A stretch of 64,000 nt of DNA from Nevskia sp. (lineage in GTDB: Bacteria > Pseudomonadota > Gammaproteobacteria > Nevskiales > Nevskiaceae). Positions 32,705-39,822 of the stretch are shown here, piece after piece (the first letter of the stretch is position 1; each line of letters opens with the position of its first letter). The notes under the pieces are model-generated. The model did no database searches. It had not been told where the DNA came from and worked only from the letters and a program-made list of their open reading frames with translations. The stretch is taken from positions 2,386-66,385 of the forward strand of contig JARLJS010000046.1 of NCBI GenBank assembly GCA_031291075.1, read 5' to 3'. The position numbers and the translations under genes are program-made.

Positions 32705-33604
32705 TCAGTCGCCGCGGACATAAACGCTGGCGACATACCGCCCTCGTCCATCCCCATGCCCAAGATCCAGCGACGTAGCCGCACGCGCCTCCCGTTCGCT
32801 CAACCCTTGCGCCATGTAAGCCGCCGCCCGCTCCTGCGCAAATGCATACCGCGCGCTATGGCTTTGGATGCCTTCGCGGTGGCAGATGTTCCGGTAGATG
32901 TTCATCGCCTGTTTCAGACTGGCGGCCGGGGTGCCATCGTCGCGGACTACCAGATGCGGCTGGCCGGTCGTTTGAAGGACGGCTTGTGCCGCTTGAATCG
33001 CAGCGAGGGCTCGATCCGGATTTGCCGGATGGACGTCTCTGGGTCGCCCACCCTTCGTCCCTTCGATTACCCGGACGAATCCGCTTTCCTTCAGCTCCCG
33101 TTCCCACCGGGACAATGTATCCGCCTGACCGGCCCGGATAGCTTCTGCTGCCCGCGCTCCGAGATGTCGCTGCAGTTCCAGGGTGGCGCCGGTCCCGGAG
33201 CGTCCAGACGTTTCCATTTTATCCTTGAACGCGTTAAAGGCTGGATCGGATAAAGGCAACTTGGTCCCGATCCGGCTGCGCTGCTCAATGCCGAGGGCTT
33301 TATTACTGTATTCCGGATTGCGGGCCAGCCCCTGCTTGCCGACCTGCTCCAGCACCGCCCGCAGATGGCTCGCTTCGTTCGCCAATGTGCCGGTGGAAAC
33401 ACCCTTGGCCATTCTTGCGGCAACAAAAGCTTTCAGATGTCTGCCGCCGATCTGGCTGGCACGCTGGATACCGTATTTCAGATCATGCATCGTCTTGGCA
33501 AATGTCTGAAACGTCGCCGTCCGTGCCTGCCGGGTCAGACTGGCTCCGCCCAGCTGGAAGCCCACCCGTTTCAGGTCGGCTTCCAATTCAGTCTTCCTGC
33601 TCAT
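32705..33604 (-). CDS. Tyrosine recombinase (integrase-domain protein lacking an obvious arm-binding domain)
   Basis: GGAGGA-like RBS before ATG 33604; catalytic set 'GARAAEA' (R), 'GTKGGRPR' (K), 'HSARY' (HxxR), 'LGHG' (H) and 'SVY' (Y). Confidence 0.85.
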   Translation of the reverse strand: MSRKTELEADLKRVGFQLGGASLTRQARTATFQTFAKTMHDLKYGIQRASQIGGRHLKAFVAARMAKGVSTGTLANEASHLRAVLEQVGKQGLARNPEYSNKALGIEQRSRIGTKLPLSDPAFNAFKDKMETSGRSGTGATLELQRHLGARAAEAIRAGQADTLSRWERELKESGFVRVIEGTKGGRPRDVHPANPDRALAAIQAAQAVLQTTGQPHLVVRDDGTPAASLKQAMNIYRNICHREGIQSHSARYAFAQERAAAYMAQGLSEREARAATSLDLGHGDGRGRYVASVYVRGD

Positions 33605-34560
33605 CCTCGATCCTCCTGTTCCAAAACATCCGACTCGGATCCCGCGTCCGGGCAATCCCGGCAGGGCTTCCCCTGCCTTGTATCCATCACGAGCGGCCGG
33701 ACGCGGTGAAGATCCGGGTAGGTGAGTTTCGTGGCCTCACAGCAGCGCGTGCCGGTGGCATGCGGTGCTGCCCTTTCACCGTTGCCGGTGTCGGGGATCG
33801 AGGCTGCCCTTTTAAAGGGCCGCTCGTGGTTGGGTGACACATCTGAGCTTCATTGCGAAGCCGAACAAGACATGCGCCCGTTGCAGGCGCTTTGAAGCCG
33901 TTTCACATGCTCGGCGCAGGTGAAAGGTCCAGTAGCGAAAGGCATTGCGCCAGTCGAAGGCTGTGCGTCACTCTCTCGGCTTCACCGAGCACAGTGACGC
34001 ACGCGTTGGGGAATGCGCCTTGGCGCAGGCCCGTAAAAGGGCCGAGCGTTGGCGCACGACATGCATCGTGATGTGGATTGCCGCAGGAAATGCGGCAGCC
34101 GACTCATCATCGTCCGAGTCAGCGGATCATCGAAGTTGGGCGTGATGCCCAGGTGTCGAACAAGGACCAAAGCCCTTACGGGCGGGCGGCGCTTCCCAGT
34201 CCATCAGCCGCCTCGGGTGCCTGCGAGCAGGCGGGGTGCGACGATACCCTCGTCGCCGGGGATGAAAGCGTCTTCCGCTCAGGCTCCTTCAATCGAGCTT
34301 GAGCGGAAAACGCCTTCCGCCGCGACCGGCTCTGCCTGGCCGCAGATTACTGGCGGACGCATTGCGCCATTGAATTCCGCTTGCACTCCTCAACGAGGTG
34401 CAGTGAAGCCAAATCAAAACAAAGCTGCCTTGAAGTATGGACCGAGCCCTATGGGCACGCAGCTCTTCCCGATCCGATAAGCTGCTTGAGCAAAATAGTG
34501 GCCACGAGCGTGCGCATTCGCAAGTCGGCATGACGGCCGATTCCTGGAGATTCCTGGACC
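33605..34560 (-). ncRNA. Candidate large structured RNA/leader (or ssDNA-structured origin) upstream of the recombinase
   Basis: No credible ORF; more than 15 hairpins, with GNRA loops and G-U pairs that favour the minus strand. Confidence 0.55.
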
Positions 34561-34630: not shown

Positions 34631-34930
34631 TCAACAATGTTTCAAGACACGCGCCCAAGCTTCGCGCTCGGCCTCGTCGCGGCTCAGGCCGCCGTCAAAC
34701 TCCATGATGGCCGCCCGTTCCTCGAAATCCTCACGCATGGCGTCAGTGATCGGCATCTGTGCGAGCATCGTCGTGCCGGCCGGCGACACATTGTCTGGTG
34801 ACGTTGCAGCCGTTGCAGACGTGCAATCCGCTGAGCGCGCACATTTCGACGTTACGCCGGCCGTTGCGGGTGACGTTGCAGCCGTCGCAGGGCTGGCTGC
34901 CAGCCAAGCAGCCAGCACATCAACGCCCAT
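34631..34930 (-). CDS. Small hypothetical protein overlapping the primase stop
   Basis: ATG 34930 overlaps the primase end; C-terminal 'FEERAAIMEFDGGLSRDEAE', a motif I associate with phage/satellite primase neighbours. Confidence 0.6.
   Translation of the reverse strand: MGVDVLAAWLAASPATAATSPATAGVTSKCARSADCTSATAATSPDNVSPAGTTMLAQMPITDAMREDFEERAAIMEFDGGLSRDEAEREAWARVLKHC
34799..34890 (-). repeat. TGCAACG-type repeat block A (inverted partner of block B)
   Basis: Reverse complement aligns ungapped to 36650-36741, 62/92 identical, with identity concentrated at both ends. Confidence 0.75.
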
Positions 34931-37664
34931 GGTCGGCTCCCAGTTTGTCAGCACGGATCGGGTACAAGCGCATCGCACGCCCACTGATACGTAGTGGCCG
35001 AGCGCGCTCGCCGCCATCGGGTGCCGGCAGCGCACCGGCCGCCTGCAAGACGTCCAGCGCGCGTTTGAAGTCAAAACCCCGCAGGGCCTCTCGCATGCCG
35101 TCGGAGCTGAACAGGTAGACCCGGCCCGCGCCGCCCTCGTCACGCCACCAGCCGGCACGATCGCGCACGATCGTGTCGGCGAGCGCGTCGGCGCAGGAAA
35201 AGCGCGCATCGCCGTGGCGTTCGATGAAGGCCGACACCTGCTCCAGAATCTGCCGGCGCTCATCATTACCGCGCCCGCGTTGCGCATGCCAGGCGCGGAA
35301 CCCCTCAGCCGCTGCCGCGATCGCCTCGCCGCGAGGCCAGCCGGAGATTCCATACTCGGTCGTCAGTTCGCCCGCCAGAGCCAATAGCGCGAAGCGTGCC
35401 GCCGCGCGCTTGTCCTGTCCCTCGGCGTCGCCGGGGCAAAATTCGGGGCGCGCCTTGATCGACTCCAGCAGAGCGGAACAATCGCCGCCGTCGCGGGCCA
35501 GCCGGTGCAGGAAGGCGCGGCCGGCGTATCCGTAGTGGGTTGCCGCCGCCAGCCGGATCGCATCGGAAAATGCAGTACCGCTCACCATACCATGCAGCTC
35601 GTCCCAGGCACCAAAGCGTCGGGTCGCCGGCACGTCCAACAGCCGGACCGATTGCCCGGCCTTCGCACGGTGTCCGCCTTCGGCCATGGTGGTGGCGATG
35701 GTGCGCTCACCACTGGAAAGCACGATGCAGCGCCAGCGGGTGACGCTGCGGGCGCCGCCGGATCGGGTCGCCCGCTGCTTGCCTTGTCCGTTGCCCAGGG
35801 TATAGACGATGGCGCCGACTTCGCGCGGGTCGCACTCGCTGATTTCATCCAGCGCCAGCAGCCCGTCATTGAATAATGCCGCGGCGCCTTCCATGCCGTT
35901 GGCAGTGGCACGCCAGCTCCGCCGGAAGCTCGGGCCGCCCCAGGTCGAGCAGGCGGCATCGATGGCGGTCGTCTTGCCGGTGGAGGAGTCGCCGACCAGA
36001 TGAATGCCTCCGCTTTCGGCCTTGCACCGGTCGAGCAGCGGCCCGGCAAACGAGGCCGATAGTGCCAGCACCAGCAGCGGATTGCCGACCGAGCGCGCAG
36101 CGATCTCGGCCTGCCAGCCGGCCAGAGTGCCGCCGGTAGTGTGCTCGGCGTGTCCGCGCTCGCTGGACTGGAACGTGACGTCCGATGCCGACGGGCCGAT
36201 CACTTCGTCCGGCAGGACATAGGAATCGCCACACCAGCCCACTTGCGTGGCGCAGCGCATTCGCCGCTGCGGTGCCTTCTGCAGCAGGTATTGGCCCAAC
36301 AGGCGATGCGACAGCAGGTCGATTTCCAGCCCCATCGCCAACAGCTCCGCGCGCAACTCGTCGCCCTTGCCGCTCAGCAGTTCCATGGGCATTGCCCAAT
36401 CGCGCCAGCGCCCGGACGTATTGCGGAACCGCAGCAGCCGGCCGTAATTGTTGTCCTGCGCGTCGAAGGTCACGGCATCCACGTACAGAGGGCCGGACAC
36501 CCATTGCTGGATCGGCGTCGGCGACGTCTTTTCGGTGCCGGGCTTCAGGCCGAAATACCAGACGCCCGGCCGATATTGGGCGCCCTTGTCAGCGTGCCAG
36601 TCCTCGAATACGCAGAATCTTGGCCGGTCTTCCAGGGTGGGAATGCCGGGCGCAACGCCTGCAACGTCTCCCGGTGCTTCGGACGTAATGGCGGAAGCCT
36701 CGTCATTGCTGGACTGCACGTCTGTAACGCCCGCAACGTCAGAATGGATCATTGCGGCTTCGAGTGTCCTTTCAATGATTGAGCGCACGCTTTCCGGCCC
36801 GCGCGCGGCCGCCTGATCGTTGAAGTCGGTCGCCCCATCCTGCCGTTCGCGCCCGAAGTCGGGCAGTGCCACCAGCCCGCCGACAGCACGCGCCGCCTCG
36901 CTAGCCTTCGTCAATCCCGGATTGCCTTCGGTCGTGGTGTCGTCGTCGGCGCACAGAACCAGCGGCAAGCTGGGGAATCGTTCGCGCATTGCCTTGGCCA
37001 CGGACAGCAGGTTGCCGGAGTTGAACGCCACAGCCACGGGCCGGCCGGTTGCCTCATGCACGGTCGCACCCGTGGCGAAGCCCTCGGCGATGCACAGGGC
37101 GGCGGTGCCTTCAACGGCGCCAATGATGAAGTGGCAGCCGGCCATGCTGCCGCCGGGAAGAAAGCGCTTTCCGCCGTCCGGTGCAATGAATTGTAGGGAA
37201 AGCAGTTCGTCTCCAACGCGAGCCGGCGCGATCAATCGCCCACCCCTCGTTCGGAGTCCGTGCGGTTTCACTCCCTTGGCGACCAGGTAGGGATGATCGG
37301 CCGTCGCCGGCATTGCCGCGTTCCAGATTTCGGCCGCCTTGCGCGCAGCAGCCGCGCGACGCCGTGCTTCCCTGGTTTCGCGCTCGCGGCGTATCGCTTC
37401 GACCCTGGCGTGTTGGTCAGTTTCTTCGGCCGCGGTCAGGGTCCGCCCAATGTCTGCCCGCCAGGTGTCCGCGGTGCCGCTACGCCAGTCGCCGTAGGCG
37501 CCGGCGGGGATGCGGTCATTGTGAAAGACGTACCAGCCGGCATCGTCGCCGCGCTTGCCGTTACTGGCGAAGCGGTGCAGTTTGCCGTCCGGCTCGATCA
37601 CGTCCGGCGGATTCAGCCCCGCTGCCAGGATCGCATCGCGGAACTGGGCGATGGGATCGCGCAT
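34920..37664 (-). CDS. Primase-helicase replication protein (Toprim + DUF927 superfamily-3-like helicase)
   Basis: 'IAEGFATG' and 'CADDD' Toprim motifs; 'GDSSTGKT' Walker A, 'LDEI' Walker B, 'SSGE'. Confidence 0.9.
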   Translation of the reverse strand: MRDPIAQFRDAILAAGLNPPDVIEPDGKLHRFASNGKRGDDAGWYVFHNDRIPAGAYGDWRSGTADTWRADIGRTLTAAEETDQHARVEAIRRERETREARRRAAAARKAAEIWNAAMPATADHPYLVAKGVKPHGLRTRGGRLIAPARVGDELLSLQFIAPDGGKRFLPGGSMAGCHFIIGAVEGTAALCIAEGFATGATVHEATGRPVAVAFNSGNLLSVAKAMRERFPSLPLVLCADDDTTTEGNPGLTKASEAARAVGGLVALPDFGRERQDGATDFNDQAAARGPESVRSIIERTLEAAMIHSDVAGVTDVQSSNDEASAITSEAPGDVAGVAPGIPTLEDRPRFCVFEDWHADKGAQYRPGVWYFGLKPGTEKTSPTPIQQWVSGPLYVDAVTFDAQDNNYGRLLRFRNTSGRWRDWAMPMELLSGKGDELRAELLAMGLEIDLLSHRLLGQYLLQKAPQRRMRCATQVGWCGDSYVLPDEVIGPSASDVTFQSSERGHAEHTTGGTLAGWQAEIAARSVGNPLLVLALSASFAGPLLDRCKAESGGIHLVGDSSTGKTTAIDAACSTWGGPSFRRSWRATANGMEGAAALFNDGLLALDEISECDPREVGAIVYTLGNGQGKQRATRSGGARSVTRWRCIVLSSGERTIATTMAEGGHRAKAGQSVRLLDVPATRRFGAWDELHGMVSGTAFSDAIRLAAATHYGYAGRAFLHRLARDGGDCSALLESIKARPEFCPGDAEGQDKRAAARFALLALAGELTTEYGISGWPRGEAIAAAAEGFRAWHAQRGRGNDERRQILEQVSAFIERHGDARFSCADALADTIVRDRAGWWRDEGGAGRVYLFSSDGMREALRGFDFKRALDVLQAAGALPAPDGGERARPLRISGRAMRLYPIRADKLGADHGR
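36650..36741 (+). repeat. TGCAACG-type repeat block B inside the primase-helicase linker
   Basis: GCAACGCCTGCAACGTC ... CTGCACGTCTGTAACGCCCGCAACGTCA. Confidence 0.75.
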
Positions 37665-37690
37665 CCTCGGCGCCCCGCAATCGCCGGAGA

Positions 37691-37930
37691 TCAGATAGTG
37701 GTACGTGCCTGCGCCGTGCTGGTGGCACGGCCCTGGTTCAGCCAAGCATCCAAATCCGCCTTGAAGTAGAACACCTTACCGCGCTTCACGAAGGCCGGGC
37801 CGACGCCGGAGCAGCGCATCATCGCCAGCGTCTTCTCGGATAGGCCGACATAGGCCGAGGCGCTCTTGGCGGTCATGCGGCCATCGGGAAACATCCTGAC
37901 TTCAACAGTTTTTTCGGGAATCGACGACAT
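37691..37930 (-). CDS. Excisionase/AlpA-like small HTH protein
   Basis: 'A.AYVGLSEKTL..MR..G.GPAFVK.GKV.Y...DLD.WL'. Confidence 0.85.
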   Translation of the reverse strand: MSSIPEKTVEVRMFPDGRMTAKSASAYVGLSEKTLAMMRCSGVGPAFVKRGKVFYFKADLDAWLNQGRATSTAQARTTI

Positions 37931-37968
37931 AACGCTGGTTCCTTTTTAATTGCAATATCCGCACATAG

Positions 37969-38002
37969 AGTTTTACAGAACACATATCGTTTGACAAACG
38001 AT
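37969..38002. promoter_or_regulatory. Divergent promoter with palindromic operator
   Basis: ATCGTTTG-A-CAAACGAT (37986-38002) contains TTGACA (+) and TTGTCA (-); minus-strand TAAAAC lies 16 bp downstream of TTGTCA. Confidence 0.6.
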
Positions 38003-38060
38003 TACGATACTGATGGAATATAACGGACGGAGCCAGAATTTCAGCACGCGAGGACATCCG

Positions 38061-38618
38061 ATGGCAGAACCCATGAGAAAGCGCAAAGCGAGCGGACCCC
38101 GTACAGAGGTCTTTGGCTTGCGCCTTGATCCAAAACTCAAGTACCTGGCCGAATTGGCGGCGCGCAAGCAGCGCCGCTCGCTGGCCAATTTCCTCGAATG
38201 GTCTCTGGAGCACGCACTCAAGGAGGTACCGCTGCGCGAGGCGGTCGAAGGACAACCCGCGCGGTCTGTCGTCGACGAGGGCGCTAAATTGTGGGATCTG
38301 GACCCGCCTTTGCGGCTCGTGAAATTGGCCAAGAACTATCCAGACCTGCTCACCTACGAAGAGCAAATCATCTGGAAAGCCATGGAGGAAATCCGGGTGT
38401 CCGCCTTTTCTGGCTTTAACAGAGATCGGGAGGAGATAATCAAGGTTCGGGCACTGATTGCGGACGACAAAAATAAAACCGTGGAACTCGAAGCGCTGAA
38501 GCGCTGTTGGTCAATGCTGGAAGCATTCGCGCGCGGAGATATTTCAGAAGCCTCACTGAAACGGGAGATCCAAAACAGCTTCGAACCCCTGCCTGTCGGG
38601 AGGCCTCCCCATGGCTAA
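38061..38618 (+). CDS. Putative regulator with N-terminal ribbon-helix-helix-like motif
   Basis: 'VFGLRLDPKLKYLAELAARKQRRSLANFLEWSL'; overlaps the integrase start. Confidence 0.65.
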   Translation: MAEPMRKRKASGPRTEVFGLRLDPKLKYLAELAARKQRRSLANFLEWSLEHALKEVPLREAVEGQPARSVVDEGAKLWDLDPPLRLVKLAKNYPDLLTYEEQIIWKAMEEIRVSAFSGFNRDREEIIKVRALIADDKNKTVELEALKRCWSMLEAFARGDISEASLKREIQNSFEPLPVGRPPHG

Positions 38619-39822
38619 AGCATTCAACAGGCTCACCCGAATCGCCATGCGCAAGCTATCGGCCGGCGGCAAGCTCAACGAGCACGGGATCACCTTCGAG
38701 CGTCTGGCCGACGGCGACGGCGTGTTTACCGTCAATGTGATGGTCGACGGCCTGCGGATTCACCGCGTCGTCGGACGCGAGTCGGACGGCGCAACGCGCA
38801 CCCAGGCGGAGGAGTTCATTGCACAGGCTCGCAACGATGCCAGGCACGACCGCCTCGCCCTGCCCAGGGGCCGCAAGCTGGCGCTGAGCTTCGAGGACGC
38901 CGCCCACAAGTATTTGCAGAAGCTCGCGGAAGAAGGTGGACGGAACGTCAACAAGAAGCGCACGCAGCTGGAGCTTCACCTGATTCCTTTCTTCGGCATG
39001 ATGCCGCTGTCCAAGATCACAACCTCCGATGTTGAGCGATACAAGAAGCATCGCCAGGAGCAGCACGCCATCAAGAGCAATGCGCTCAATAAGGGCTGCA
39101 CCTTCAAGGATGCCGCCCCCTCCGCCGGCACGGTCAACCGGGAGCTGGCGGCGCTTTCTCATTTGTTCAGCAAGGCAGTCGAATGGGCATGGCTGGATCG
39201 GCGCCCGGCGAAAATCAACCGGCTGCGGGAGGAAAGCGGCCGCATCACTTACCTCACCATCGAACAGGTCGCGCAACTAAAGGAATGTGCGAAAGCGGAC
39301 AGCAGCGAACTGATTTATCCGTTCATCGTCATCGCGTTGGGATCGTCGATGCGAAAGATGGAAATCCTGCGACTGCGCCGCGAGCATGTCGACACGGCGC
39401 GCCGCGTGCTCTACATCCCGAAGGCCAAGGCCGGTGCCCGCGAGCAGCCGATCACGGACGAGACCGCGGAGTTTCTTGAGGCGTACGTGCAGGCGCTGCC
39501 GCCGGGCACGCCGTGGCTGTTTCCGTCGCCTGGCGCGAAGGATGGACATGCGATCGACATCCGCAAGCCTTTCATCCGCGTTGTCGTCGCAGCCGGGCTT
39601 GATCCCAAGGTGGTTGTTCGTCACACGCTGCGGCATACTGCGATCACACATCTGGTGCAGGCTGGCGTCGACCTGCCAACCGTGAAGCGGGTCAGCGGGC
39701 ACAAGACGCTCGCGATGGTCGAGCGCTATTCCCACCAGAATGGCGCGCATATTCAGAGTGCGATGGATAAGCTGGAAAGCCGTTTATCGTCGATCGCACG
39801 CGAACGAAAAATCTCCGTCTGA
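38611..39822 (+). CDS. Tyrosine recombinase/integrase
   Basis: 403 aa; 'SMRKMEIL.L', 'KAG', 'HTLRHT', 'SGHKT..M..RYSH'. Confidence 0.95.
   Translation: MAKAFNRLTRIAMRKLSAGGKLNEHGITFERLADGDGVFTVNVMVDGLRIHRVVGRESDGATRTQAEEFIAQARNDARHDRLALPRGRKLALSFEDAAHKYLQKLAEEGGRNVNKKRTQLELHLIPFFGMMPLSKITTSDVERYKKHRQEQHAIKSNALNKGCTFKDAAPSAGTVNRELAALSHLFSKAVEWAWLDRRPAKINRLREESGRITYLTIEQVAQLKECAKADSSELIYPFIVIALGSSMRKMEILRLRREHVDTARRVLYIPKAKAGAREQPITDETAEFLEAYVQALPPGTPWLFPSPGAKDGHAIDIRKPFIRVVVAAGLDPKVVVRHTLRHTAITHLVQAGVDLPTVKRVSGHKTLAMVERYSHQNGAHIQSAMDKLESRLSSIARERKISV

Follow-up and report, generated by a model that had tools for sequence, protein, structure and literature searches.

In the pri-rep-ori replicons of Staphylococcus aureus pathogenicity islands (SaPIs), the C-terminal winged helix of the initiator Rep recognises penta- or hexanucleotide iterons directly after rep; half of the iterons lie on each side of an AT-rich centre, at least two per side and in opposite directions, and their sequence varies between elements along with the Rep tail (PMC9371898, PMC7581432). 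Gram-negative phage-inducible chromosomal islands (PICIs), for example EcCICFT073, have the gene order int-alpA-pri, with ori downstream of pri (PMC10111431). Here we analysed a window of 64,000 nucleotides from the genome of Nevskia sp. (GCA_031291075.1, contig JARLJS010000046.1; positions below count from the first letter of this stretch), in which an integrated mobile element encodes a primase-helicase, hereafter Rep, and carries two 92-bp blocks in inverted orientation, one inside the rep gene and the other just past it. The closest known system is the SaPI replicon (SaPIbov1 Rep, SaPI1 Rep, SaPI5 PriRep5; likewise the SCCmec helicases Cch and Cch2) and not P4 ori/crr, because the helicase is a DUF927 homologue of SaPIbov1 Rep and Cch and not of the P4 alpha type. 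We propose, at a probability of roughly 70%, that each block forms one half of a SaPI-type replication origin of this element, to which Rep would bind; comparison of related loci strongly supports their reading as a bipartite origin of paired iterons. The gene and the two blocks, termed modules D (direct) and I (inverted), are as follows.

34920 to 37745, minus strand: primase-helicase (Rep) gene, 941 aa, with Toprim_3 at residues 217-317 and the DUF927 helicase at residues 392-669.
36650 to 36741, minus strand: module D (block B), in gene-sense orientation and in frame in the Toprim/DUF927 linker, Rep residues ~335-365.
36732-36740, 36723-36731, 36714-36722 (GTGCAG variant), 36660-36668 and 36651-36659, minus strand: units of module D.
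34799 to 34890, plus strand: module I (block A), in inverted orientation, starting 30 bp past the primase-helicase stop and lying in the N-terminal part of the downstream open reading frame (ORF).
34800-34808, 34809-34817, 34818-34826, 34848-34856, 34860-34868, 34872-34880 and 34881-34889, plus strand: units of module I.

Toprim_3 and DUF927, the latter at an E value of 7e-98, are the only domains found by Pfam in Rep. Sequence matches in the PDB are SaPIbov1 Rep (8TCH, 7e-17) and SCCmec Cch (5DGK, 1e-11); the NCBIfam Cch1 match is partial and far under its cut-off, and the PHROG match is a DNA primase. The longest ORF of Rep begins at the TTG at 37745, and the true start is likely the ATG of MRDPIAQF at about 37664.

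The element resembles the SaPI replicons in several respects. Both have a self-loading DUF927/MCM-like helicase with the primase fused or adjacent and a C-terminal winged-helix tail (predicted here), iterons right after the rep stop, as in module I, and two iteron sets in opposite orientation. Moreover, relatives in which the two modules stand side by side resemble the SaPI origin plan, and the window shows the same plan with the helicase-coding part placed between the halves. Unlike in SaPIs, the two sets are structured 92-bp modules 1.76 kb apart instead of one compact origin, and both lie in translated DNA, one in the linker of rep and one in the ORF that follows; each unit has 9 bp, the DNA has 64% GC and the primase is of the Toprim type. 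With the Gram-negative PICIs the element shares an integrase, an AlpA-like regulator, a primase-helicase (which may be of the DUF927 type) and a candidate origin 3' of pri; in contrast to them, no capsid or packaging genes were seen, and an MpsA-like mobilisation gene is present.

The layout also recalls two systems with unrelated initiators. P4 reportedly has a bipartite origin in which ori and crr are bound by the alpha primase-helicase. The alpha protein has a different primase domain and a D5_N/Pox_D5-type superfamily 3 helicase, and its ori and crr are non-coding and unlike each other in layout. Both P4 and the present element are small integrative elements with an integrase and an AlpA-like regulator, and both have two clusters of the same repeat kilobases apart around the primase-helicase gene, or part of it, presumably bound by the initiator. 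However, the initiator here combines Toprim_3 with DUF927, and the halves are strict inverted copies of one module, both of them coding. The first-pass annotation of this DNA had suggested that the blocks may be paired iteron clusters forming a P4-like bipartite origin; paired iterons are strongly supported by a conserved oriented pair whose units covary with each other and with the Rep tail, and the analogy with P4 ori/crr goes no further than layout, the initiator being of a type other than P4 alpha. In phage lambda, ori lies inside gene O, with iterons in the segment that encodes the inter-domain linker of the initiator, and these iterons covary with the initiator's DNA-binding domain among lambdoid phages. 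Lambda O is not a helicase, and in lambda one iteron cluster with an AT-rich region next to it makes up the origin. Module D resembles it in placing iterons in the linker of an initiator whose DNA-binding tail covaries with them, although this likeness concerns layout only, Rep being unrelated to O, and only one half-origin would lie in the initiator gene here, the other half being in the next gene. A literature search of incomplete coverage yielded SaPI, SCCmec and PICI background and no description, PICIs included, of the split coding layout. Small plasmids encoding Toprim and DUF927 proteins were considered as proof of a replicase role and set aside: the best of them, pTAO100 (L121, NZ_AP014837.1), a 6.4-kb Nitrosoglobus plasmid with separate toprim and DUF927 genes at 39.6% identity to the window protein, also has repM. 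DUF927 genes also occur on several small plasmids (7-15 kb) of Pseudomonas, Klebsiella, Legionella and Salmonella.

Block A on the plus strand and the reverse complement of block B are identical at 62 of 92 positions in an ungapped alignment, and the same register was recovered by a separate repeat search (repeats I1 and I2). The runner-up among inverted 92-nt pairs at most 5 kb apart, anywhere in 30-42 kb, has 48 matches. Each block is a 92-nt module with five to seven 9-bp units of the consensus GNCGTTRCA. The units of block A are GACGTTGCA, GCCGTTGCA, GACGTGCAA, GACGTTACG, GCCGTTGCG, GACGTTGCA and GCCGTCGCA, at offsets 2, 11, 20, 50, 62, 74 and 83; block B has clear matching units at offsets 2, 11, 20, 74 and 83, and the two blocks share a distance of 72 bp between their outer unit pairs. 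Between the opposed modules lie 1759 bp of coding DNA. No additional cluster of GNCGTTRCA units was found across the window, and a profile of the module built from related loci matches module D at an E value of 8e-18 and module I at 2e-15. The gap-free inverted match and the equal spacing of the units, both noted in the first-pass annotation, were thus reproduced, as was its argument that protein constraint does not explain the match, since one block differs from the other in reading frame and has the opposite sense. Its placement of block A after the primase gene needs an addition: the block lies past the stop codon, but also inside a conserved ORF of 99 aa. Block B is in frame in the inter-domain linker of Rep, where it codes for SDVAGVTDVQ...GDVAGVAPG, and in the protein alignment module D corresponds exactly to an indel of 31 codons when compared with L004 and L005, both of which are without a linker module.

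Along the module, two direct units are followed by a variant third unit, a spacer of ~22 nt, one unit, a spacer of ~15 nt and two direct units. The third unit is almost universally the variant GTGCAAGCC, and the middle unit between the two spacers has the inverted orientation in the majority of elements. A conserved dyad or hairpin in the module centre (AAGCC-N10-GGCTT versus AACCC..GGGTT) was considered and rejected, with 28 matches against 27.6 in shuffled pairings; the apparently covarying columns 21 and 57 are the unit prefix repeated within the inverted central unit.

Conservation of the pair was assessed in loci around homologues of the gene, comprising 10 genome loci, 30 from a class-wide genome search and 80 metagenome loci, which were scanned without gaps at first and then with a 93-column nhmmer profile of the module. 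The ungapped scan found the inverted pair at the same two positions, with other unit sequences, in L001, L002, L003, L006, L007, L008 and L010, and the profile gave matches in 80 loci around homologous genes. About 50 of them have the layout of the window, with D in the linker and I inverted at 80-100 bp past the stop, and the two are separated by 1750-1830 bp; position and orientation are thus kept in related elements, which is what the first-pass annotation had suggested checking. In about 15 further loci D and I stand side by side after the stop, with a gap of 21 or 42 bp (10 bp in L117), and in L056 and L116 D lies ~1.3 kb upstream of the gene. D comes before I in nearly all two-module loci, the exceptions being L073, L103 and L013. 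Three modules occur in L006, L045 and L013, where the third lies further downstream (~3894-3985 in L006, ~5475 in L045) and the order is D, I, D or I, I, D; the two I modules of L013 are identical and ~150 bp apart. The named related loci are mostly from Betaproteobacteria.

In a tree of the C-terminal part of Rep the side-by-side type branches basally, and therefore the split layout looks derived. Such a topology would fit an origin of the window layout by entry of one half into the rep linker as an in-frame insert of 31 codons. Distant DUF927 homologues (at most 45% identity; L014-L040) have no such inverted pair, and other repeats, to which the module profile gives no match, occur in L005 (only direct units, of the CACCAAACA type) and in L008 (GGGAAC units). 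The layout is therefore confined to one clade.

The units of the two modules vary between elements and mostly agree within one. Among elements the core hexamer of the unit is GTAACA, GTATCA, GTTACA, GTTGCA, GTTTCA or GTTCCA, and D and I share the same hexamer at 55 of 68 loci. When each distinct combination is counted once, the two modules agree in 22 of 35; 4.2 would be expected, and the highest count among 10,000 permutations was 12. The base preceding GT, either C or G, is equal in the two modules in all but one of the 68 loci (67/68), and the central inverted unit likewise tracks the unit type of its element. This agreement is restricted to the units: unit columns of D and I are 85.6% identical within an element and 67.8% between elements, and spacer columns are 49.8% identical within and 47.9% between elements. 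Since the spacers stay at background, the halves are not homogenised by gene conversion, and the pattern points to selection for one specificity as what keeps the units alike. The encoded peptides shift with the unit (GVTGVT / VTPVTP, GVSGVS / DTPDTP and DVAGVT / ATAATS); hence the constraint is on the DNA and is borne by two tolerant, low-complexity peptide segments. A few elements carry mixed units. In L043 (D ~3937, I ~5794), every unit of D has GTATCA; in module I units 4-5 share this core and units 1-2 carry GTTGCA. L083, grouped with L085, combines GTATCA with GTAACA, and L068 and L081 combine GTTTCA with GTTGCA. Such elements could be intermediates of specificity switching. GGGGTATCA is the module unit type of a relative.

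The unit type also covaries with the extreme C-terminus of Rep, as revealed by a column test on pairs of relatives whose aa 380-941 are identical to 72% or more, in which residue differences were compared between pairs with different unit types and pairs with the same type. The strongest 15-residue windows start at residues 911-924, the signal extends over ~aa 911-938, and the highest-scoring single columns are 924 and 917.

34953 to 35015, minus strand: codons of Rep residues 911-931 (GGERARPLRISGRAMRLYPIR), the stretch that covaries most with unit type and is predicted to form the beta-hairpin wing of a C-terminal winged-helix-like domain; within it, residues 913, 917 and 924 covary with the units.

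GTATC units go with Phe917 and Gly924 in 27 of 28 sequences, GTAAC with Leu924 in 9 of the 13 sequences that reach the tail, and GTTCC with Lys924 in 6 of 7. Furthermore, the prefix C is paired with Glu913 without exception (35/35) and the prefix G with Lys913 in 29 of 30; this pairing fits the usual contacts of glutamate with C and of lysine with G. Rep of the window has Glu913, Pro917 and Ala924, paired with GACGTTGCA units. Independent contrasts on a helicase-core tree (aa 380-900) ran in the same direction in 7-8 of 8 cases and in none in the opposite direction (p about 0.008). On this tree the unit type changed at least 19 times, and therefore the agreement of module D, 1.8 kb from the tail coding region, is not due to linkage alone. 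An AlphaFold2 model of Rep aa 700-941, built from a 57-sequence alignment with a mean confidence (pLDDT) of 83, ends in helix-helix-strand-strand, with the strands of the wing hairpin at residues 916-920 and 923-931. Its best matches in the PDB are 8TCH (E 8e-5) and 5DGK (2e-3), followed by TcpK, an oriT-binding protein with a winged helix-turn-helix. As modelled, the Rep tail folds like that of SaPIbov1 Rep, and from the model and the covariation we infer that the C-terminal winged-helix domain would be the part of Rep that recognises the iterons.

Binding of Rep to the modules need not mean that they form an origin. They might instead be Rep-binding operators or sites of copy-number control (handcuffing), with the origin elsewhere, an explanation that we regard as unlikely but that fits all binding-related evidence as well as an origin does. 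Several observations count against a split origin. The AT-rich centre of SaPI origins is absent here: an AT-rich unwinding element was sought beside and between the modules and none was found, a lack that favours the control-site explanation. The modules and their flanks have 54-64% GC, and even in the side-by-side relatives the 21- or 42-bp gap has 62-71% GC in most cases (range 50-90%). The central unit of the window modules (CGTTACG / CATTACG) breaks the inverted-unit rule of most relatives. In addition, a mere ~30-100 bp separate module I from the codons of the covarying tail, and physical linkage could therefore explain part of the association between tail and units. Control sites would also suit the position of module D inside the rep transcript, right after a weak promoter-like site and an in-frame ATG, and the helicase ORFs that begin right at the module in some relatives. 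On the other hand, the element has no further cluster of these units. Module I occupies the position directly 3' of rep that the origin holds in SaPIs and Gram-negative PICIs (PMC9371898, PMC10111431), and the kept convergent orientation of both modules recalls the opposed iteron sets of SaPI origins.

The remaining explanations fare worse. The two arms presumably share one transcript and are complementary in their unit parts (62/92), such that they might pair in the mRNA as a long-range duplex around the helicase coding region and control how the helicase part and the ORF after it are translated, or how stable they are. This is very improbable, given that spacer likeness is at the background level already described, that pairing has no need of unit repetition within each arm, that D lies far upstream of the gene in L056 and L116, and that the unit sequence follows protein residues; nor did any Rfam family match over 32-40 kb. 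The first-pass annotation had offered as an alternative that the blocks are recombination sites of the nearby second recombinase, which would invert a 1.9-kb segment. An inverted pair does bracket a functional segment, and two genes of the tyrosine-recombinase family, the MpsA-like protein and the integrase, lie within 4 kb, either of which might flip the helicase segment as an on/off switch of replication. However, the two gene parts are on opposite strands in none of the 66 loci that have both, the MpsA-like gene is missing from every one of the 39 other loci that bear modules and have 2.5 kb or more of flank downstream, and an integrase homologue was detected in only a few module-bearing loci. 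The ~15 relatives with modules 21-42 bp apart would have nothing to switch, the longest well-matched stretch between the blocks is just 31 nt at 87% identity, and the multi-unit anatomy is that of iterons and not of a core-type recombination site. The switch is accordingly not supported, and we consider it slightly less probable still than the RNA duplex. Finally, both arms encode low-complexity peptide rich in Ala, Thr, Val and Gly in a genome of 64% GC, and the match might be a by-product of composition or chance. The likelihood of this is negligible: the 62 matches stand against a background maximum of 48, the module recurs in 80 loci with position and orientation kept, and the arm peptides differ and change with the unit.

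Taking the modules as the halves of an origin, we propose a putative model for its function. Each half would be a 92-bp module with about six 9-bp sites (GNCGTTRCA) for the self-loading primase-helicase Rep, and the winged-helix tails of a Rep hexamer would dock on the units of one module. The opposed modules would load two helicases of opposite polarity, either directly or via Rep-mediated looping over the 1.76 kb between them. Afterwards, the fused Toprim primase would prime synthesis, resulting in bidirectional replication of the excised circle. As a speculation, Rep bound at module D inside its own gene might throttle rep expression. A wider generalisation is possible, which we put forward tentatively and hold to be rather doubtful: the origin might be a dyad of two interchangeable half-origins able to function whatever the distance between them, from 21 bp to beyond 4 kb, each loading one helicase hexamer, such that the helicase-coding segment can sit between them. 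A simple, evolvable code in the wing would read the units, in which Glu913 or Lys913 recognises the base ahead of GT (C or G) and the two central bases of GTNNCA are recognised by residues 917 and 924, and many orthogonal initiator-origin pairs would coexist and switch by few substitutions.

The surrounding genes belong to an element with the following further features.

34631 to 34930, minus strand: downstream ORF of 99 aa, whose ATG overlaps the Rep stop; its N-terminal part comes from module I, and it has a C-terminal EERAAIMEFDGG motif (phrog_22422).
37691 to 37930, minus strand: AlpA/excisionase-like helix-turn-helix gene upstream of Rep, in the replication operon context (phrog_66, E 5e-8).
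38611 to 39822, plus strand: the element's tyrosine integrase, oriented divergently to the replication operon (Pfam Phage_integrase, phrog_1).
32705 to 33655, minus strand: second recombinase, MpsA-like (Pfam Integrase_1 / Phage_int_SAM_2), unlinked to the modules in relatives.

An ORF beginning at the Rep stop covers the downstream module in 63 of 69 distinct relatives. In the window, the C-terminal half of the 99-aa ORF (34631-34768, minus strand) ends with a EDFEERAAIMEFDGGLSRDEAE motif (phrog_22422), and homologues of this ORF follow the candidate origin in L007, L041, L052, L075 and L081; other relatives keep the N-terminal MGLDxLLxxLE and the module, and their C-terminal parts are unrelated. 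Directly upstream of module D there is a weak sigma-70-like site (TTGAAA-16-AATGAT, 9/12; region 36747-36775, minus strand) and an in-frame ATG (MIHS, 36749-36747). In L107 and L115-L120 the longest frame of the helicase part has MLT just before the D module, and the residues upstream of it are non-homologous, which suggests that primase and helicase may be separate or frameshifted ORFs there. A helicase-only product, or autoregulation of Rep at D, is conceivable. The most AT-rich stretch of the element (37943-38040, 30-40% GC) lies between the AlpA-like gene and the divergent pre-integrase genes and is probably a divergent promoter/operator region; no other DNA in the vicinity of the replication genes is obviously easy to melt. 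Elsewhere in this genome, on a different contig (G000:C229:38779-39681), a 337-aa ORF encodes a second Toprim-type primase homologue with 49% identity to aa 34-332, which suggests a second related element in this genome.

In summary, the origin proposed here is of a familiar kind, and its split, fully coding layout is unusual; it extends known origin biology and adds no new principle. If the proposal is true, a SaPI-type origin can split into two oriented halves that are wholly protein-coding, one of them inside the initiator gene, which would bear on how self-loading helicases assemble in opposite orientation and on the need for a contiguous unwinding element. The related loci would then hold a natural series of initiator-origin specificities, with at least six unit cores, two prefixes and candidate determinant residues, and this series might serve in building compatible replicons. 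It would also account for the odd low-complexity linker insert in many annotated toprim/DUF927 proteins of environmental Betaproteobacteria.

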